From IMG/VR virus record IMGVR_UViG_2541047699_000011: a stretch of DNA of 10,189 nucleotides; one strand, 5' to 3'. Both the position numbers and the translations under genes were made by a program. This document shows, piece by piece, positions 1 to 10,189 of the stretch; positions within the stretch are counted from its first letter, which is position 1, and the number at the start of each line of letters is the position of its first letter. The notes below the pieces were generated by a model that searched no databases, was not told the DNA's origin, and was given only the letters and a program-made list of their open reading frames with translations. The stretch is from a virus. Its lineage: Duplodnaviria; Heunggongvirae; Uroviricota; Caudoviricetes.

Positions 1-447
1 GTTTTACATGCCTTGACTTATCGGATGAAATTCTCTTACTGAATTTAACGGCAGTTTAATAGCCGTACAACTCGTGGTAGCCAGGGAAATATCCCAGTCG
101 TGGTTAAGGTTGTACTTGACGGCTATTATTTCAACAATGCTTAAAGTGAGAGCTTAAGGTTATGCGTATGTTTTACAGTCCGAGTAGATTCTGACCAATA
201 GCTTCTTTGTATAATTCTGTCAGAAATAAATCTTGGCTTGCATGAAGTTTGAGACCTTATCTTGTTTGATTATGAATAATCAATTCGCCATAATTGTATC
301 ACCGGAGCCTGAACAACTCCGGTGACTTCTGCGCTAAACGGGGACGTTTATGCGCACACACAATCCAAACTCTCTTCTCCCTTCACAGATGCAGAAATGC
401 ACCTGCGTTTTTTTGCATCCAGCGTCTGACCTCTGTGGAGGTGAAGC

Positions 448-903
448 GTGAACCTACCACAAGATGGCATCAAACTGCATCGCGGTAACTTCATCGCTAT
501 CGGCCAGCAGATCCAGCCTTATCTGGAGGACGGAAAATGCTTTCGCATGGTGCTTAAACCGTGGCGTGAGAAACGCAGTCTTTCCCAGAATGCACTCAGC
601 CATATGTGGTACAGCGAAATCAGTGAATACCTCATCAGCAGGGGGAAATCGTTCGCTACCGCAGCATGGGTAAAAGATGCTCTCAAACACACATACCTCG
701 GTTATGAAACCAAGGACCTGGTTGATGTCGTAACCGGCGAAATCACTACTATCCAGTCGTTACGCCATACCTCCGATCTTGATACCGGAGAGATGTATGT
801 CTTCCTGTGTAAGGTTGAAGCCTGGGCGATGAATATTGGCTGCCACCTGACTATTCCGCAGAGCTGCGAGTTCCAGCTGCTGCGCGACAAGCAGGAGGCG
901 TAA
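448..903 (+). CDS. ybcN: NinB-family prophage protein (YbcN-like), 151 aa
   Basis: GTG start at 448 preceded by GGAGG; the translation [15 protein letters not shown]...[13 protein letters not shown] matches my recollection of DLP12 YbcN and the NinB-type 'RSLxQN...W' motif; stop TAA overlaps the next ATG (TAATG). Confidence 0.85.
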
Positions 904-1073
904 TGGCTACACCGCTTATTCGTGTCATGAACGGACACATCTACAAAGTACCAAATCGTCGTAAGCGTAAACCTGAGCTGAAGCCATCCGAAATACCAAC
1001 ACTGCTCGGGTATACCGCCAGCCTGGTTGATAAAAAATGGTTGCGACTGGCAGCAAGGAGGAATCATGGCTGA
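903..1073 (+). CDS. ninE: NinE-family small prophage protein, 56 aa
   Basis: Hand-translated [59 protein letters not shown], absent from the ORF track because it is short; sits between ybcN and ybcO as in DLP12; start overlaps the ybcN stop. Confidence 0.75.
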   Translation: MATPLIRVMNGHIYKVPNRRKRKPELKPSEIPTLLGYTASLVDKKWLRLAARRNHG

Positions 1074-1356
1074 TTTAAGAAAAGCAGCGCGTGGTCGGGA
1101 ATGCCAGGTAAGAATCCCTGGCGTATGTAATGGCAATCCTGAAACGTCAGTACTGGCACATATCCGGCTGGCTGGATTGTGCGGTACCGGTATCAAACCG
1201 CCAGACCTGATTGCCACCATTGCATGTTCTGCCTGCCACGACGAAATCGACCGTCGCACGCATTTTGTTGACGCTGGATATGCAAAAGAATGCGCGCTGG
1301 AAGGTATGGCGAGAACACAGGTTATCTGGTTGAAAGAGGGGGTTATTGAGGCGTGA
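1066..1356 (+). CDS. ybcO: DUF1364-family protein YbcO, Cys-rich putative zinc-binding nuclease, 96 aa
   Basis: Internal ATG at 1066 of the 1027..1356 track ORF gives [23 protein letters not shown]...ACSACHDE with CxnC...CxxC cysteine pairs; overlaps the ninE 3' end by 8 nt; conserved position ahead of rusA. Confidence 0.8.
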
Positions 1357-1715
1357 ATACCTACAGCATCACATTACCCTGGCCTCCGAGCAATAATCGC
1401 TATTACCGCCATAATCGTGGGCGCACGCACGTCAGCGCAGAGGGGCAGGCATACTGCGATAACGTCGCCCGAATCATTAAAAACGCAATGCTGGATATCG
1501 GCTTGGCTATGCCAGTGAAAATCAGCATTGAGTGCCACATGCCGGATCGCCGTCGCCGTGACCTTGATAATCTGCAAAAGGCCGCTTTTGACGCACTCAC
1601 CAAAGCAGGTTTCTGGCTGGATGATGCTCAGGTCGTTGATTACCGCGTTGTGAAGATGCCCGTTACCAAAGGTGGGAAGCTGGAGCTGACTATCACTGAA
1701 CTGGGAGATGAATGA
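1353..1715 (+). CDS. rusA: Holliday junction resolvase RusA, 120 aa
   Basis: GTG start overlapping the ybcO stop (GTGA); translation [23 protein letters not shown]...[25 protein letters not shown] matches recalled E. coli RusA almost residue for residue. Confidence 0.9.
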
Positions 1716-1852
1716 TGTTTGAGTCTTATATGGCAGAGCGTCTTCGCCGCCGCTGGGTGCGCCTGCGCTTATATCGTTTTCCTGGTTCTGTTTTGACCGA
1801 TTACCGAATACTGAAGAATTACGCCAAAACCCTGACAGGAGCAGGAGTATGA
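1712..1852 (+). CDS. ylcG: small DLP12-type protein YlcG, 46 aa
   Basis: ATGATG start overlapping the rusA stop; hand translation [46 protein letters not shown]; short, so not in the ORF track. Confidence 0.55.
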
Positions 1853-1937
1853 AGTCAGAGATAACAATCAACTAATACTGTTTTGTTGATTTTTGCTTGT
1901 AATTGGCGTTCTGGTCTGATTTTTGTGGAGTAAGTTG

Positions 1938-2321
1938 ATGCGTGATATTCAGATGGTTCTTGAGCGTTGGGGAGCGTGGGCGGCTAATAATCATGAAGAT
2001 GTGACCTGGTCGTCCGTTGCCGCCGGTTTTAAGGGATTAATTCCTTCAAAAGTAAAATCTCGCCCGCAATGTTGTGACGATGACGCGATGATCATTTGCG
2101 GGTGCATGGCCCGTCTGAAAAAGAACAACAGCGATTTACACGATTTATTAGTAGATTATTATGTATGTGGTATGACATTCATGTCACTGGCAAGTAAGCA
2201 TTGCTGCTCGGATGGTTATATCGGGAAAAGGTTACAGAAGGCTGAGGGCATAATTGAAGGGATGTTAATGGCATTAGATATCCGGTTAGATATGGATATC
2301 GTTGCTAATAATTCTAATTGA
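1938..2321 (+). CDS. quuD: late-gene antiterminator Q (phage 21/82-type QuuD), 127 aa
   Basis: ATG at 1938 preceded by GGAG; translation [24 protein letters not shown]...[16 protein letters not shown] matches recalled DLP12 QuuD; it sits immediately before a leader region and a strong intrinsic terminator. Confidence 0.85.
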
Positions 2322-2458
2322 TATGCAATTGTTTACTAAAAGTTATTAAAAATGGGGCGTGGAAACGCCCCCAAAATAAAGGGTAATATATAACAGAAGG
2401 TTTATATAGTAAGAAGCAAGGTAGTGCTTCTAAAGGAAGTGGCTTGAGGGCTCCACTT
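2322..2458 (+). promoter_or_regulatory. candidate late promoter (pR'-like) and Q-utilisation leader
   Basis: Position directly after Q and before a strong terminator mirrors the lambda pR'-qut-tR' layout; AT-rich with TTGTTT/TATTAA-like hexamers, but no convincing -35/-10 pair with 17-bp spacing could be fixed by eye. Confidence 0.25.
2352..2376 (-). terminator. candidate intrinsic terminator downstream of nmpC
   Basis: Perfect hairpin GGGGCG-TGGAAA-CGCCCC; on the - strand it is followed by ATTTTTAATAACTTTT. It lies ~135 nt beyond the nmpC stop, so assignment is tentative. Confidence 0.3.
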
Positions 2459-2502
2459 ATATGTTGCGGAGGCAAAGCCTCCCGCAACATATCTTTTTCG
2501 TA
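2459..2502 (+). terminator. rho-independent terminator (tR'-like, end of a short late leader RNA)
   Basis: ~15-bp near-perfect stem ATATGTTGCGGAGGC / GCCTCCCGCAACATAT with an AAA loop, followed by CTTTTTCG on the + strand. Confidence 0.55.
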
Positions 2503-2509
2503 AGTCAGA

Positions 2510-3592
2510 TTAGAACTGATAAACCAGACCTACAGCGACGATGTCGTCGGTATCAATACCAGCTGTTTTGGTAAACTTACTATCGTCAATTAAGTTGATT
2601 TTGTAATCAACAAAAGTGGACATGTTTTTATTAAAGTAGTAAGTAGCACCGACATCGACATACTTGACTAAGTCTCGGTCACCATGAACACCAAGGTCTT
2701 TACCTTTTGACTGAAGGTAAGCAACAGATGGTCGCAGACCGAAGTCAAACTGATATTGTGCTACTGCTTCAAAGTTTTGTGCTTTGTTTGCAATATGGTT
2801 ATTACCAAAAACGGTCATATTCTGAGTTTCAGAATATGTGGTAGCCAGATAGATATTGTTCGCATCATATTTCAGGCCTGCAGCCCATACTTCCGCATTT
2901 TTGCCGGAGGCATTGAATTTGCTCTTACCATAGGCGACCTGACCGTCAGTGCGATCTGATTTAGCATAGGTTGCACCCACGCCGAATCCTTCATACTCAT
3001 AAGTAGTGGAGAAACCGAAACCATCACCATTGGCTTCAGTTACGTCAGTGCGGTCATTTTTACCCTGATACTGAGCAGCAAAGTTCAGGCCATCGACCAG
3101 ACCAAAGAAGTCGTTGTTACGATAAGTTGCAACACCAGTAGTGCGACCAGTCATGAACACATCTGTTTGGGTCCAGGTATCACCACCGAATTCTGGCAGG
3201 ACGTCAGTCCACGCACCGATGTCGTATGCTACACCGTAGTTACGGCCGTAATCGATTGAGCCGTAATCACCAAATTTCAGGCCTGCAAATGCAAGACGGG
3301 TTTTGTCTTTGGAAGAACCTTGAGATTCAGCACGGTTGCCTTTGAATTCATATTCCCACTGACCGAAACCAGTCAGTTGATCGTTGATTTGGGTTTCACC
3401 TTTGAAGCCAAGACGGGCATAAGTAGTATCACCATCATCTGCATCATTAGAGGAGAAGTAGTGCTTGGCATTAACTTTCCCGTATAGATCCAGCTTGTTA
3501 CTGTCTTTATTATAAATTTCAGCTGCCTGAGCAGACATCGCCATCAGTACTGATGCAGCTACAGCAGAAATTGCCACTGTTAATTTTTTCAT
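2510..3592 (-). CDS. nmpC: outer-membrane general porin, OmpC/OmpD/NmpC family, 360 aa precursor
   Basis: Signal peptide [23 protein letters not shown]|AEIYNKD, porin hallmark LYGKV...GFKGETQ, and C-terminal ...VGLVYQF ending in Phe; uninterrupted ORF. Confidence 0.9.
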
Positions 3593-4018
3593 TGTACGCC
3601 CTTTTTTTTGAACTATTATTAAAAAATGATGTCACTGCGCGATAAATATTCATCTAATCAATGCGATTATTTCAAGATGTAAGTTTTAGTTTCTCATTTA
3701 ATTTGTGAAGTAGATCTCTATTTTTATCTGAACCTTTTCTATCTAATCCTATTCATGGCTCTTGTTTGAACGAAAATAAATCTATTAGCTAATTTATATT
3801 AATGGCACTTATTTATAAGCGCTCTATAATTCTTTAACTTAATTTAAACAAACTAAAAATAACATCGGAAATTATTCATTGGTTATTTGTTGAAGTTTTC
3901 TTATGTATTTGTGGTGGTGTTTTGAACACTCGGTGGCATTCTCACAAATATCATTTAGTAGTTTACGTACGTAAAAAATTGGTTATGCTGTTAAGAGTGG
4001 TTACTTCGTCACACAGCT

Positions 4019-4050
4019 TAAACCCGCCGTCGAGCGGGTTTTTCCATTTT
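4019..4050 (+). terminator. rho-independent terminator-like hairpin upstream of the holin gene
   Basis: AACCCGC-CGTCGA-GCGGGTT stem-loop followed by TTTCCATTTTTT. Confidence 0.4.
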
Positions 4051-4181
4051 TTGAGTCTCGATATTAGCTGATAACCCAATACCTGAGTTATTCACTGACT
4101 CCGAATCTGTTACGTTTCTGCCTTTATTGCGATACGTAGTATCCCCTTAATTTACACCCGCTTTGTCTGCGAGGTGGGGTT

Positions 4182-4397
4182 ATGAAATCCATGGATAAGT
4201 TAACAACGGGTGTCGCCTATGGCACCTCAGCAGGTAGTGCCGGGTACTGGTTTTTACAGTTGCTCGATAAAGTCACGCCCTCACAGTGGGCGGCAATAGG
4301 TGTGCTGGGTAGTCTGGTATTTGGCTTGCTGACGTATCTGACAAACCTTTATTTCAAGATTAAAGAAGATAAGCGTAAGGCTGCGAGAGGTGAATAA
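4182..4397 (+). CDS. essD: class II pinholin (phage-21 S type), 71 aa, dual-start motif
   Basis: [26 protein letters not shown]...[17 protein letters not shown] has two TMDs and a charged C-terminus [13 protein letters not shown]; Met1/Met4 dual start; GAGGTGGGG RBS; stop overlaps the next ATG (TAATG), as in S21-R21. Confidence 0.9.
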
Positions 4398-7300
4398 TGT
4401 CGCCATCATTACGCAAGGCTATTGCTGCTGCTATTGGTGGTGGGGCTGTTGCCATAGCGTCTGTGCTCATCACTGGTCCGAGTGGTGACGATGGCCTGGA
4501 AGGTGTCAGCTACATACCATACAAAGATATTGTTGGTGTATGGACTGTATGTCACGGGCATACAGGAAAAGACATCATGCTCGGTAAAACGTATAAAGGC
4601 AGCAGTAAGGGGCATACCCCGCGCGAAGCGAAGGACAACCTGAAATCCACGCAGTTACTGAGTGTGATCGATGCCATCAGCGAAGGGCCGATTGAAGGTC
4701 CGGTGGATGGGTTAAAAAGCGTGCTACTGAACAGTACGCCGGTGCTGGACACTGAGGGGAATACCAATATCTCCGGTGTCACGGTGGTGTTCCGGGCAGG
4801 TGAGCAGGAGCAGACTCCGCCGGAGGGGTTTGAATCCTCCGGCTCCGAGACGGTGCTGGGTACGGAAGTGAAATACGACACGCCGATCACCCGCACCATC
4901 ACGTCGGCAAACATCGACCGTCTGCGTTTTACCTTCGGTGTGCAGGCACTGGTGGAAACCACTTCAAAGGGTGACCGGAATCCGTCGGAAGTTCGCCTGC
5001 TGGTTCAGATACAGCGTAACGGTGGCTGGGTGACGGAAAAAGACATCACCATTAAGGGCAAAACCACCTCGCAGTATCTGGCCTCGGTGGTGGTGGATAA
5101 CCTGCCTCCGCGCCCGTTCAATATCCGGATGCGCAGGATGACACCGGACAGCACCACAGACCAGCTGCAGAACAAAACGCTCTGGTCGTCATACACCGAA
5201 ATCATCGATATGAAACAGTGCTACCCGAACACGGCACTGGTCGGTGTGCAGGTGGACTCGGAGCAGTTCGGCAGTCAGCAGGTGAGTCGTAATTATCATC
5301 TGCGCGGGCGCATTCTGCAGGTGCCGTCGAACTATAACCCGCAGACGCGACAATACAGCGGTATCTGGGACGGAACGTTAAAACCGGCATACAGCAACAA
5401 CATGGCCTGGTGTCTGTGGGATATGCTGACCCATCCGCGCTACGGCATGGGGAAACGTCTTGGTGCGGCGGATGTGGACAAATGGGCGCTGTATGTCATC
5501 GGCCAGAATTGCGACCAGTCGGTGCCGGATGGTTTTGGTGGCACGGAGCCGCGCATCACCTGTAATGCCTGGCTGACCACACAGCGTAAGGCGTGGGATG
5601 TTCTCAGTGATTTCTGCTCGGCGATGCGCTGTATGCCGGTATGGAACGGGCAGACGCTGACGTTCGTGCAGGACCGGCCGTCGGATAAGGTGTGGACCTA
5701 TAACCGCAGTAATGTGGTGATGCCGGATGATGGCGCGCCGTTCCGCTACAGTTTCAGCGCCCTGAAGGACCGCCATAATGCCGTTGAGGTGAACTGGATT
5801 GACCCGGATAACGGCTGGGAGACGGCGACAGAGCTTGTGGAGGACACGCAGGCCATTGCCCGTTACGGTCGTAACGTCACGAAGATGGATGCCTTTGGCT
5901 GTACCAGTCGGGGGCAGGCACACCGAGCCGGGCTGTGGCTGATTAAAACGGAACTGCTGGAAACGCAGACCGTGGATTTCAGCGTGGGCGCAGAAGGGCT
6001 TCGCCATGTGCCGGGCGATGTTATTGAAATCTGCGATGATGACTATGCGGGTATCAGCATCGGCGGGCGCGTGCTGGCGGTGAACAGCCAGACCCGGACG
6101 CTGACGCTCGACCGTGAAATCACTCTGCCATCCTCCGGTACCACGCTGATAAGCCTGGTTGACGGAAGCGGCAATCCGGTCAGCGTGGAGGTCCAGTCCG
6201 TCACCGACGGCGTGAAGGTAAAAGTGAGCCGGGTTCCTGACGGCGTTGCCGGATACAGCGTGTGGGGGCTGAAGTTGCCGACGTTGCGCCAGCGCCTGTT
6301 CCGCTGCGTGAGTATCCGTGAGAACGATGACGGCACGTATGCCATCACTGCCGTGCAGCATGTACCGGAAAAAGAGGCCATCGTGGATAACGGGGCGCAC
6401 TTTGACGGCGACCAGAGCGGCACGGTGAATGGTGTCACGCCGCCAGCGGTGCAGCACCTGACTGCCGAAGTCACCGCAGACAGCGGGGAATATCAGGTGC
6501 TGGCGCGCTGGGACACGCCGAAGGTGGTGAAGGGGGTGAGCTTTATGCTTCGCCTGACCGTGGCAGCGGATGACGGCAGTGAGCGGCTGGTCAGCACGGC
6601 CCGGACGACGGAAACCACATACCGCTTCACGCAACTGGCGCTGGGGCGGTACACGCTGACAGTCCGGGCGGTAAATGCGTGGGGGCAGCAGGGCGATCCG
6701 GCGTCGGTATCGTTCCGGATTGCCGCACCGGCAGCACCGTCGAGGATTGATCTGACGCCGGGCTATTTTCAGATAACCGCCACGCCGCATCTTGCCGTTT
6801 ATGACCCGACGGTACAGTTTGAATTCTGGTTCTCGGAAAAGCGGATTACCGATATCAGGCAGGTTGAAACCACAGCCCGCTATCTTGGCACGGCGCTGTA
6901 CTGGATAGCTGCCAGTATCAATATTAAGCCGGGCCATGATTATTATTTTTATATCCGCAGTGTGAATACTGTTGGCAAATCGGCATTCGTGGAGGCTGTC
7001 GGTCAGGCGAGCGATGATGCTTCCGGCTATCTGGATTTTTTCAAAGGCCAGATAACTGAATCCCATCTCGGCAAGGAGCTGCTGGAAAAAGTCGAGCTGA
7101 CGGAGGATAACGCCAGCAAACTGGAGGAGTTTTCGAAAGAGTGGAAAGACGCCAACGATAAATGGAATGCCATGTGGGGCGTCAAAATTGAGCAGACCGA
7201 AGACGGCAGGCATTATGTCGCGGGTATTGGCCTCAGCATGGAGGATACGGAGGAAGGCAAACTGAGCCAGTTCCTGGTTGCCGCTAACCGTATCGCGTTT

Positions 7301-7987
7301 ATTGACCCGGCAAACGGGAATGAAACGCCGATGTTTGTGGCGCAGGGCAACCAGATATTCATGAACGAAGTGTTCCTGAAGTATCTGACGGCTCCCACCA
7401 TTACCAGCGGCGGCAATCCGCCGGTATTTTCCCTGACACCGGACGGGCGGTTGACGGCGAAAAATGCCGATATCAGCGGTAACGTGAATGCGAACTCAGG
7501 GACGCTCAATAATGTCACGATTAACCAGAACTGTCGGATTCTGGGAAAACTGTCTGCCAACCAGATTGAAGGTGATATTGTCAAAACGGTGGGAAAAGCC
7601 TTTCCGAGAAATGGCAGTTATGCCAGCGGTACAATAACGGTCACTGTGTACGATGACCAGGCTTTTGACCGTCAGATAGTAATCCCACCCGTTCTGTTTC
7701 GCGGTGGTAAGCATGAAAACTTCAACAGCAACAACCAACAGTCATACTGGTATTCAACCTGTAAGCTGCAGGTACTGAAGAACGGACAGGAAATCTTTCA
7801 GCAACCCGCGACGGATGTCAGCAGGGTATTTTCATCCGTCATTGATATGCCAGCGGGACACGGCCATGTCACCCTGACTTTCAATGTTTCTTCATATGGT
7901 GCAAATAACTGGACGCCAACGACCAGTATCAGCGACCTTCTTGTTGTCGTGATGAAGAAATCAACAGCCGGTATCAGTATCAGTTGA
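4397..7987 (+). CDS. chimeric ORF: SAR-endolysin N-terminus (~66 aa, RrrD/R21-like signal-anchor) fused in frame to a lambda-J-type tail-tip host-specificity protein (~1130 aa)
   Basis: Residues 1-66, [66 protein letters not shown], match the phage-21 R / DLP12 RrrD N-terminus. From residue 67, [39 protein letters not shown]... follows lambda J from its third codon for more than 1100 residues. One uninterrupted frame. Confidence 0.85.
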
Positions 7988-8005
7988 ATTTTATAACCCA
8001 AATAC

Positions 8006-8034
8006 GGGCGCCAGAAATGGCGCCTTTTTTATTT
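8006..8034 (+). terminator. rho-independent terminator after the J-type ORF
   Basis: GGCGCC-AGAAAT-GGCGCC hairpin followed by TTTTTTATTT. Confidence 0.5.
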
Positions 8035-8045
8035 GTGGAGTGAAT

Positions 8046-9356
8046 ATGGCAGTACAGATTTCAGGCGTGCTGAAAGACGGTGCAGGAAAACCAATACAGA
8101 ACTGTACTATTCAGCTCAAAGCAAAGCGTAACAGCACCACGGTACTGGTGAACACGGTGGCCTCTGAAAATCCGGATGAAGCCGGGCGTTACAGCATGGA
8201 TGTTGAGTATGGCCAGTACAGCGTCACCCTGCTGGTTGAAGGTTTTCCGCCTTCACATGCCGGGACCATTACCGTCTATGAAGGTTCCAGACCAGGTACG
8301 CTGAATGATTTTCTCGGTGCCATGACGGAAGATGATGTCATGCCGGAGGCATTGCGTCGTTTTGAGGTAATGGTGGAGGATGTGGCACGCAACGCTGAAG
8401 CCGCCTCTCAGAGCGCAGCGGCAGCAAAGAAATCAGAAACAGCAGCGGCATCGTCCAGGAACGCGGCGAAAACATCAGAGACGAATGCAGGTAACAGCGC
8501 GAAAGCGGCAGCTTCTTCAAAAACAGCCGCACAAAACGCAGCAACAGCGGCAGAACGTTCAGAGACAAATGCCCGTGCGTCAGAAGAAGCCTCCGCAGAC
8601 AGTGAAGAGGCTTCCCGCCGTAATGCAGAGTCAGCCGCTGAAAATGCCGGAGTCGCCACCACAAAAGCGCGGGAGGCTGCAGCAGACGCAACAAAGGCCG
8701 GGCAGAAAAAGGATGAGGCTCTGTCGGCAGCGACACGAGCTGAAAAGGCGGCAGACCGCGCAGAAGCCGCAGCGGAAGTGACTGCAGAGCCCTATGCGAA
8801 TATAGTGCCGCCGCTGCCTGATGTGTGGATACCGTTTAACGATTCACTGGATATGATTGCGGGTTTTTCTCCGGGCTATAAAAAAATAGCTATTGGTGAC
8901 GATGTGGTTCAGGTCGCCAGTGATAAACAGGTTAATTTCAGTCGCGCATCAACGGCAACATATATCAACAAATCTGGCGAACTGAAAACGGCGGAAATTA
9001 ATGAGCCGCGATTTGAGTGTGATGGCCTGCTTATTGAGGGACAAAGAACGAACTACATGCTCAATTCGGAAAGTCCAGCCAGCTGGGGGAAGTCATCAAA
9101 CATGGATGTGCCCGAAACCGGGACGGATAGTTTTGGTTTTACTTATGGAAAGTTTGTCTGCAACGATTCTCTGGTTGGGCAAACTTCGGCTATTAATATG
9201 GCATCAATTGCTGCAACAAAGTCAGTTGATGTCTCAGGCGATAACAAGTACGTGACAACCTCATGCCGTTTTAAAACAGAACGACAGGTAAGGTTACGTA
9301 TACGGTTTGATAAGTATGATGGTAGTGCAACAACTTTTCTTGGCGATGCGTACTGA
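8046..9356 (+). CDS. stf: side tail fibre protein (Stf-like), N-terminal ~436 aa, 3' end truncated by an IS insertion
   Basis: ATG at 8046 with GGAG 5 nt upstream; MAVQISGVLKDGAGKPIQNCTIQLKAKRNSTTV...GRYSMDVEYGQYSVTL matches the lambda Stf N-terminus, followed by an Ala/Ser/Glu-rich repetitive shaft; the stop TGA (9354-9356) is the first three bases of the IS end. Confidence 0.75.
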   Translation: MAVQISGVLKDGAGKPIQNCTIQLKAKRNSTTVLVNTVASENPDEAGRYSMDVEYGQYSVTLLVEGFPPSHAGTITVYEGSRPGTLNDFLGAMTEDDVMPEALRRFEVMVEDVARNAEAASQSAAAAKKSETAAASSRNAAKTSETNAGNSAKAAASSKTAAQNAATAAERSETNARASEEASADSEEASRRNAESAAENAGVATTKAREAAADATKAGQKKDEALSAATRAEKAADRAEAAAEVTAEPYANIVPPLPDVWIPFNDSLDMIAGFSPGYKKIAIGDDVVQVASDKQVNFSRASTATYINKSGELKTAEINEPRFECDGLLIEGQRTNYMLNSESPASWGKSSNMDVPETGTDSFGFTYGKFVCNDSLVGQTSAINMASIAATKSVDVSGDNKYVTTSCRFKTERQVRLRIRFDKYDGSATTFLGDAY

Positions 9357-9425
9357 AGTGGTTTACTGAATTTGGCCACCTGAACAGAGGTGATATGCTC
9401 ACCTCAGAACAACACAGGTGCCATA

Positions 9426-10189
<764 letters not shown>

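Follow-up and report, generated by a model that had tools for sequence, protein, structure and literature searches.

A single unbroken open reading frame occupies positions 4397..7987 (+) of the 10,189-nucleotide stretch of viral DNA analysed here (the window), and the 1196-aa protein that it encodes begins as a lysis enzyme and ends as a tail-tip protein. This raises the question of whether such a long, intact chimera reflects a new function or the decay of a prophage. Our analysis indicated that it is very probably a neutral-type deletion scar of a lambdoid icd prophage, with no selected function indicated.

The sequence-only reading had recognised the N-terminus of a signal-anchor-release (SAR) endolysin and a nearly full-length J protein within one frame, and both homology and Pfam searches agreed with it. 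Residues 1-68 aligned with residues 1-68 of the phage 21 lysozyme (PDB 3hde) and of RrrD (4zpu) with an E value of about 1e-38. Residues 1-66 were identical to phage 21 R (R21) at 62 of 66 positions and to the endolysin of phage 4A7 at 66 of 66. From there on, fusion residues 67-1195 corresponded to lambda J residues 3-1131 (8iyk, E = 0). Together with the 4A7 alignments, these matches assign codons 1-66 of an R21/RrrD-type SAR endolysin to 4397..4594 (+), and codons 3-1132 plus the stop of the tail-tip attachment protein J, in frame with the endolysin fragment, to 4595..7987 (+). Pfam detected Phage_lysozyme only at profile positions 3-45 of 125, and every J domain was present. Six J-specific families were found with E values from 1e-35 to 1e-43, and the series was complete: FNIII-A, Phage-tail_3, two Ig-like domains, the tail-tip fibre region and the C-terminal receptor-binding domain. 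The fusion thus resembles lambda J in all domains from residue 3 to the C-terminus. It differs from lambda J in that a 66-aa membrane-targeting segment has replaced the native N-terminus, in the deletion of the assembly partners I, K, L, M and H from the element, and in its receptor-binding region (7490..7984, +), which is of the non-lambda 'A8 gpJ' type (137/165 identical to PDB 9wca, 81/165 to lambda J) and not of the LamB-binding type.

The sole hydrophobic segment of the protein was found at residues 8-26 (KD19 maximum 2.11). It belongs to a Gly/Ala-rich signal-anchor of roughly codons 8-27 (4418-4477, +), where 11 of 20 residues are Gly or Ala, R6 and K7 stand upstream, and homology to the R21 SAR domain is evident. 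A complete lysozyme catalytic domain is absent: R21 homology stops at residue 66 of 165, and the missing residues 67-165 make up about two thirds of the lysozyme fold. The fusion has E35, D44 and T50 at the positions of the R21 catalytic triad. As predicted from this truncation, the protein cannot degrade murein, nor can its SAR helix refold into an enzyme body. The gene nevertheless occupies the place of a SAR endolysin, directly 3' of the pinholin gene, as do R21 and RrrD (PDB 3hde, 3hdf, 4zpu). The S21 stop and the fusion ATG share one base (ATAATG, 4395-4399), the same overlap as in the native S21/R21 pair and in 4A7. The native context of J, in contrast, is lost: the gene no longer ends a tail operon, behind M, L, K and I, but follows the pinholin gene, and the deletion has taken its codons 1-2 with all that preceded them.

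Comparison with phage 4A7 (NC_049946.1, Bievrevirus) explained how the two halves came together. By BLAST, window 1-4595 aligned with 4A7 42733-47327 at 99.59% identity, and window 4594-9353 with 4A7 15413-20172 at 96.68%, both with zero gaps. The two blocks overlap by 2 nt, placing the deletion junction at 4594..4595, where a 2-nt microhomology, TA, is common to both parental sequences. The breakpoint at 4594/4595, the first 66 endolysin codons and the entry at J codon 3, all proposed before any comparison, proved exact by these gap-free alignments. The microhomology proposed at the same time, GGTAAA at 4583-4588, did not survive: a crossover there would yield CTCGGTAAAGGC, whereas the window retains ACGTAT between the two, and the parental alignments, which overlap at TA 4594-4595 only, likewise rule it out. 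The deletion measured 17,255 bp both against 4A7 and against the intact chromosomal prophage of E. coli Eco889 (R-to-J distance). Lost with it were the lysozyme body, Rz/Rz1, cos, terminase, all head genes and the tail genes Z to I. The two comparisons therefore agree with the earlier idea that one deletion removed the lysozyme domain, Rz/Rz1, terminase, portal, capsid and tail-shaft genes. Sizing against an intact relative, as had been recommended, succeeded; the relatives named for it did not serve, and DLP12 or phage 21 as parent is superseded by the 4A7-like icd phages, of which 4A7 is gap-free and collinear on both flanks. We propose that the chimera arose when illegitimate recombination deleted 17,255 bp from a lambdoid prophage in a single event and joined codon 66 of an R21-type SAR endolysin to J codon 3 across the 2-nt TA, and that the reading frame would have been preserved by chance (1-in-3).

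The fusion J differed from 4A7 J at 101 synonymous and 22 nonsynonymous codons, and the R fragment showed five differences, all synonymous. The 101:22 pattern in J and the synonymous-only differences in R look like divergence between functional phage alleles, that is, divergence that would predate the fusion. Chimeric queries (the 3' end of 4A7 gene I plus window J, and window S/R 5' plus 4A7 R 3') did not retrieve the exact parental alleles; the nearest intact J was 97.0-97.5% identical and the nearest R 99.5%. As judged from these alignments, the parent of the fusion is unsampled, and the 3' edge of R in the window, like its J, belongs to unsampled alleles.

Gene order on both sides of the junction was equal to that of 4A7 and of 4A7-like icd prophages such as that of Eco889. 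The left arm, from the esterase gene to R codon 66, runs esterase-ybcN-ninE-ybcO-rusA-ylcG-Q-porin-S21-R21 in both; the right arm, from J codon 3 into stf, continues in 4A7 as J-stf-sitABCD-icd, as it does in the carrier strain M1/5. Unlike the fusion element, 4A7 retains the 17,255-bp stretch that separates R codon 66 from J codon 3, as well as an immunity/replication region. The 4A7-like prophage of M1/5 lies at the icd attachment site with sitABCD as cargo; its integrase gene carries a frameshift, only part of xis remains, the immunity/replication region has been lost, and an ISEc52 is present. This decay, added to the loss of 17,255 bp of lysis and morphogenesis genes relative to 4A7 and Eco889, marks a defective prophage, as had been supposed from the window. 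With the lysis and particle genes removed, the element is incapable of normal cell lysis and of particle production. Within the window, the 5' part of the side tail fibre gene (stf; 8046..9353, +; Pfam PF08400; collinear with the 4A7 tail protein gene; start as called by PGAP in M1/5) is cut by ISEc52 of the IS3 family (9354..10189, +), which continues past the window end and is 100% identical to the ISEc52 copy at L001 5889-6726. None of the complete genomes had ISEc52 at this stf site. The svsR sRNA of the related NC-SV prophage at icd is not relevant here, because it is located in cI, which is deleted from the remnant.

K-12 DLP12 offers an instructive parallel. It shares the ybcN-ninE-ybcO-rusA-ylcG-quuD-nmpC-essD arm and the regulatory region that precedes essD, and it is likewise a defective lambdoid prophage in which a large internal deletion took the morphogenesis genes, leaving the terminase pseudogene aaaD beside tfaD. 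Unlike the window, DLP12 has complete rrrD, rzpD/rzoD and borD, no J, another chromosomal site and an IS5-broken nmpC. Its deletion ends in the terminase/tail-fibre region and produced pseudogenes, not a long in-frame chimera.

The junction was present in 79 of 5426 complete E. coli genomes, independently assembled in many laboratories, and was covered by none of the 50,697 phage records. The exact chimera protein, already in RefSeq as WP_001556898.1, occurred on at least 1000 contigs. With the same junction recovered so often, the probability of an assembly or sequencing artefact, or of an N-terminal extension that J natively has in one of the phage lineages, is negligible; against the latter also stand the absence of any phage record spanning the junction, the identity of the N-terminal 66 aa with the 4A7 endolysin, and the collinearity of the flanking DNA with distant 4A7 segments. 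The native extension had been named beforehand as a refutation of the fusion, and it failed. Eight named junction carriers are ST1193 (PMC11488385), and those named carriers that could be typed were ST1193; judging from them, the chimera is fixed in the ST1193 lineage. The parental prophage would have been a 4A7 relative at icd with sitABCD, in a phylogroup B2 E. coli lineage including ST1193 (clonal complex 14).

Conservation among the carriers said little about selection. The ORF was 100% identical in at least 60 carrier records and is for this reason uninformative; with zero ORF differences among these records, a selection test from carrier diversity is without power. ST1193-type carriers scored 16 bits under a perfect match over 9353 nt, a shortfall estimated as about 3 SNPs, zero of them in the ORF; were about 3 SNPs placed at random in 9353 nt, the chance of all missing the ORF would be about 0.23. 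In at least two carriers, FDAARGOS_536 and AREA_492, an IS4 splits the ORF. With identical copies in all listed carriers and an IS4 break in some, an intact ORF cannot count as evidence of function. The ORF would still be intact through a recent event and near-clonal carriers, not through a need for the protein.

The question of expression turns on the genes and signals upstream. The intact Q-type late antiterminator gene (quuD, the PGAP name in M1/5; 1938..2321, +; 127 aa; Pfam PF06530, E 1e-53) encodes a protein identical to 4A7 Q at 127/127 positions and to K-12 QuuD at 121/127. Between Q and the lysis cassette lies a prophage porin gene of the NmpC/Lc type (2510..3592, -; annotated OmpC; Pfam Porin_1, E 2e-151), 359/360 identical to the 4A7 porin and laid out in the same way in DLP12. 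The S21-type pinholin gene (essD; 4182..4397, +; Pfam PF04971, E 2e-35) is intact, with the dual-start motif MKSMDK, and its 71-aa product is identical at 71/71 residues to the 4A7 holin and to K-12 EssD. A candidate sigma-E-type promoter, tGAACT-N17-TCACT (3609..3636, +), putatively assigned by its motif, is homologous to the DLP12 lysis-operon promoter region and invariant across the window, K-12 DLP12 and 4A7. The forward primer of a DLP12 reporter stated as '-121 to +650' maps exactly to 3520-3539, which would place the transcription start near 3641; the reverse primer as printed did not map, probably owing to typos in the supplement, so that this start was derived from the forward primer and the -121 given for the reporter. 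A sigma-70-like match, ATGGCA-17-TATAAT (3802..3830, +; 10/12 in a consensus scan), is a candidate pR' equivalent whose -10 element is kept in K-12 and 4A7. A terminator-like, tR'-like hairpin followed by a T-run (4020..4041, +), invariant in K-12 DLP12 and 4A7, separates these promoters from the pinholin gene. An Rfam scan of the window returned zero families.

A published study of the DLP12 lysis operon reports that Q, RpoE and Hha control it, that it is expressed and that it influences vesicle production (PMC7918800). By comparison, the chimera could be transcribed from the conserved DLP12-like promoter region, with intact Q further upstream, and translated in its native context behind the pinholin. 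The suggestion that it is coupled to the pinholin gene and positioned for Q fits what was found, namely the native start overlap and the intact Q upstream. Low-level expression of the chimera, under envelope stress or Q action, is plausible, since neither the pinholin and Q genes nor the promoter region and terminator upstream are damaged. If it is translated, the SAR segment would, by analogy, enter the Sec pathway and leave the N-terminus anchored in the inner membrane. In SAR::PhoA fusions, the SAR domain of R21 brings about export of the passenger, most of which stays membrane-anchored while a small fraction is released uncleaved (PMC8385771). Export of the tail-tip protein had been put forward from the sequence alone as an inference, to which these published fusions lend indirect support. 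P1 Lyz / P21 R SAR::PhoA constructs resemble the fusion in that the R21 SAR domain precedes a heterologous passenger (PMC8385771). The passengers differ, however, PhoA being a natural Sec substrate of ~450 aa, and the passenger here a ~1130-aa cytoplasmic, trimer-forming tail protein; unlike those constructs, the fusion also has 40 lysozyme residues between the SAR segment and J. The ~1130-aa J moiety might then be translocated, jam the translocon or be degraded.

These properties could be taken to mean that the chimera was exapted, with the SAR segment exporting or tethering J at the periplasmic inner-membrane face for a selected role in ST1193 and relatives, for example outer-membrane receptor masking (superinfection exclusion) or modulation of envelope stress and vesiculation as in the DLP12 lysis module. 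In its favour, the ORF is unbroken and keeps both the ribosome-binding site and the start overlap of the native gene; the upstream set of pinholin, Q, promoter region and terminator has been conserved; in DLP12 the homologous operon is expressed and influences vesicles; PhoA is exported by the R21 SAR domain; and the chimera appears fixed in a pandemic clone. We nevertheless consider such an exaptation very unlikely. Zero sequence variation is available with which to show constraint, natural IS4 knock-outs occur, and in-frame joining has a prior of 1-in-3. J attaches to loops that folded porins display at the cell surface, out of reach from the periplasm, and its folding and trimerisation normally take place in the cytoplasm, together with tail partners that this element has lost. 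The literature searched held no mention of WP_001556898, nor of endolysin-tail fusions in cryptic prophages. Slightly less probable still is the fuller proposal that the chimera is made from a stress- or Q-responsive lysis promoter, that the SAR segment places J periplasmically or pinholin depolarisation releases it, and that the result is a selected trait in ST1193 and relatives. If true, that trait would be phage exclusion via receptor interference, or changed envelope or vesicle behaviour, and the locus would show, in nature, how an export signal from phage lysis can be turned to the secretion of a structural protein.

The hybrid may instead be a harmful or inert by-product that jams or burdens the Sec translocon, as in classic hybrids of a signal sequence and a large passenger, or is degraded, the operon being kept silent and toxicity beside that of the pinholin being its only effect. 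We regard this as unlikely. The only hydrophobic segment is the N-terminal signal-anchor, followed by ~1130 aa of a normally cytoplasmic protein, and every carrier keeps an intact, potentially lethal pinholin gene, which implies either tight silencing or termination at 4020-4041. The argument is, however, purely inferential, and compatible with the deletion scar rather than exclusive of it. Counted against the neutral reading are the chimera's intactness in most carriers and its apparent fixation in a very successful pandemic clone. Purifying selection may also have acted, since zero ORF variation leaves room for it, and to say 'no function' is to argue from a missing signal. Taken together, these findings suggested that the chimera is probably recent and probably neutral, and the fusion looks like a common, ordinary type of prophage-decay scar, not a new functional system.

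As such, the locus provides a precisely mapped case of prophage decay, in which one microhomology deletion, with both parental contexts available, produced a long chimeric ORF. Nothing found suggests a new biological system. Its main practical value is as a guard against over-reading an intact ORF in a near-clonal population, and annotation pipelines call the chimera either an ordinary 'J' protein or two pseudogenes. The junction is also a marker of a lineage including the pandemic clone ST1193, and the SAR domain joined to a very large passenger is a natural construct for the study of SAR-mediated export. Carrier genomes contained further J-like loci, at several places per record.

We found the ORF at 4397-7987 (+) to be a chimera of 1196 aa without a stop or frameshift, and its ATG shares one base with the pinholin stop (ATAATG), as in the native pinholin and endolysin pair of phage 21 (S21/R21). 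Residues 1-68 aligned with residues 1-68 of both the phage 21 lysozyme (3hde) and its K-12 counterpart RrrD (4zpu), at E values of about 1e-38, and residues 1-66 showed four differences from R21, all conservative. Residues 67-1195 aligned with residues 3-1131 of lambda J (8iyk). In agreement with these alignments, the Pfam lysozyme profile was matched only at positions 3-45 of 125, its first third, and was followed by the complete J domain series. The sequence-only reading, which had proposed one intact ORF adjoining the pinholin gene, with 66 SAR endolysin codons joined to J codon 3, was thus correct in every coordinate. A Gly/Ala-rich segment at residues 8-27 is the sole hydrophobic stretch in the chimera. 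The residues at E35, D44 and T50, which we take to be the R21 catalytic positions, are kept; as judged from its sequence, the lysozyme fragment nevertheless cannot be an enzyme, because two thirds of the fold are absent. With its catalytic domain incomplete, the chimera is not a SAR endolysin; nor is it a working J, since the native N-terminus and operon context are lost. In the C-terminal receptor-binding region of J (7490-7984), 137 of 165 residues were identical to 'A8 gpJ' (9wca, 'A8 gpJ 713') and only 81 of 165 to lambda J, which argues for a receptor specificity unlike lambda's; the ancestral phage therefore probably relied on a receptor site other than that of lambda.

When a junction-spanning query was compared with a phage collection, 4150-4595 matched holin and endolysin, 4594-5050 matched J, and no record in the collection spanned both halves, so that residues 1-66 are SAR endolysin sequence and not a native extension of J. 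Among the matched phage records, 4A7 (NC_049946.1), an intact phage that integrates at icd, is the counterpart of the window element, with the same left arm (esterase-ybcN-...-Q-porin-S21-R21) and the same right arm (J-stf-sitABCD-icd fragment-integrase). Window 1-4595 aligned gap-free with 4A7 42733-47327 (99.59%) and window 4594-9353 gap-free with 15413-20172 (96.68%), the two blocks overlapping by the dinucleotide TA. Counted in prophage order, 17,255 bp are missing, and the chromosome of strain Eco889 has an intact prophage in which the end-points are likewise 17,255 bp apart. In 4A7 this piece holds the remaining 99 lysozyme codons, the Rz spanin gene, three small ORFs, both terminase subunits, portal, protease, decoration protein, major capsid protein, head-completion genes and every tail gene up to I; Rz1 is presumably embedded in the missing Rz gene, as in lambdoid lysis cassettes in general. 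The suggestion of a single deletion from the lysozyme body to the tail genes therefore held, and comparison with an intact phage, 4A7 in place of the proposed DLP12 or phage 21, gave its size. GGTAAA, put forward as the crossover, was rejected, as it lies 6 nt left of the actual TA overlap. The 2-nt microhomology points to illegitimate recombination: the chimera arose when one deletion of 17,255 bp, across this microhomology, occurred in a prophage at icd that resembled 4A7.

The R fragment has five synonymous differences that set it apart from 4A7 as well as from K-12 rrrD, all clustered within 34 nt (4531-4564) immediately left of the junction, the rest of that block being nearly identical to 4A7; this suggests a mosaic boundary within R of an unsampled parent phage. 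Comparison of the J part with 4A7 J gave 101 synonymous and 22 nonsynonymous codon differences. By its sequence, this pattern in R and J is that of functional phage alleles diverging before the deletion, and it shows that the actual parent is absent from the sampled genomes, in which no intact J comes closer than 97.0-97.5% identity.

The window is a lambdoid prophage late-region remnant. From its left end it carries ybcN, ninE, ybcO, rusA and ylcG, a Q-type antiterminator gene (1938-2321), an antisense porin gene (2510-3592, -) between Q and the lysis cassette, the S21-type pinholin gene (4182-4397), the chimera, and a side tail fibre gene (stf) interrupted at 9353/9354 by a copy of the IS3-family element ISEc52 (9354-10189). 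The porin gene is intact, prophage-borne and of NmpC/Lc type (PGAP name 'OmpC'); it is identical to the live phage 4A7 porin at 359 of 360 residues, and the K-12 DLP12 copy is IS5-broken. The nearest analogue in kind is K-12 DLP12, whose left arm is the same and whose morphogenesis genes likewise disappeared through an internal deletion, its terminase pseudogene aaaD now adjoining tfaD; the window element differs only in the positions of the end-points and the accident of frame. No paper found mentioned the chimera protein or this kind of fusion. It represents a further deletion chimera in a cryptic prophage, an already known phenomenon.

The pinholin is identical at 71/71 residues to those of 4A7 and K-12, Q is identical at 127/127 to 4A7 Q, and the 590-nt porin-pinholin gap is almost invariant across the window, 4A7 and K-12 DLP12. 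Upstream of the pinholin gene, the 17-nt CTGCCTTTATTGCGATA (about 4119-4135) is also found in 4A7 and is absent in K-12 DLP12 (L004). A study of DLP12 reported control of the homologous operon by the Q antiterminator, RpoE and Hha, and described its reporter fragment as '-121 to +650' (PMC7918800). The forward primer of that reporter matched window 3520-3539 exactly, which places the start near 3641. Just upstream lies a putative sigma-E-type motif, tGAACT-N17-TCACT (3609-3636); between it and the pinholin gene, a terminator-like hairpin (4020-4041) was found, and K-12 DLP12 and 4A7 carry both unchanged. A sigma-70-like match is located at 3802-3830. With pinholin and Q intact, the upstream region conserved and promoter-like motifs present, the pinholin-chimera pair may plausibly be transcribed, weakly or under certain conditions.

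J, at about 1130 aa, normally folds in the cytoplasm with its partners, and these are deleted from this element. In published work, PhoA joined to the P21 R SAR domain was exported and remained mostly membrane-bound, with small amounts released uncleaved (PMC8385771). The chimera should, by analogy with these constructs, engage Sec through its N-terminus, and the J moiety might be translocated, jam or be degraded. The chimera probably has no function, and we regard an exapted, exported J as very improbable. The 3591-nt ORF is 100% identical in at least 60 records; ST1193-type matches fall 16 bits under a perfect match over 9353 nt, an estimated three substitutions, none within the ORF. Three random substitutions would all miss the ORF with a probability of about 0.23, so this comparison has no power to detect constraint. 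The prior for an in-frame junction is one in three. In FDAARGOS_536 and AREA_492 the ORF is split by IS4 (L002, 8977-10403), which cuts J near residue 910 and has duplicated 13 bp of target (window 7114-7126); in the present window, ISEc52 interrupts the adjacent stf. All of this fits a recent, neutral scar.

Of 5426 complete E. coli genomes, 79 carried the junction, and the exact protein was on at least 1000 contigs of a large protein collection. RefSeq lists it as WP_001556898.1, 'phage attachment tail tip protein J'; for the broken ORF, PGAP calls two pseudogenes, 'glycoside hydrolase family protein' and J. Eight listed carriers (MS10711, MS10858, MS10860, MS8320, MS8324, MCJCHV-1, 09-02E and AVS0096) belong to ST1193, O75:H5, clonal complex 14, phylogroup B2 (PMC11488385); further carriers including M1/5 showed zero mismatches to window 1-9353. 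Strain 23AR0151 has the chimera twice, once in its chromosome and once in another record of 195 kb (NZ_CP195449.1), and the listed copy of strain MY504 is on a 237-kb record (NZ_AP026904.1); these could reflect duplication, a large plasmid with chromosomal DNA, or fragmented assembly. The M1/5 remnant lies at icd, with a frameshifted integrase gene, a partial xis, an IS in the former immunity region and sitABCD at the right end. It is placed between icd and a partial icd duplicate (L001, 1-26000), has an IS200C copy on each side, and carries as cargo sitABCD, an alpha/beta hydrolase gene and an Ig-like/inverse-autotransporter gene. The window ISEc52 is 100% identical to the copy that separates xis from the Ig-like gene in this M1/5 remnant, and no IS was found at this stf site in the complete genomes searched, so that the window derives from an M1/5-like strain outside those sampled. 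The length of the Ig-like gene varies among carriers, from 1.5 kb in M1/5 to 3.9 kb in FDAARGOS_536.
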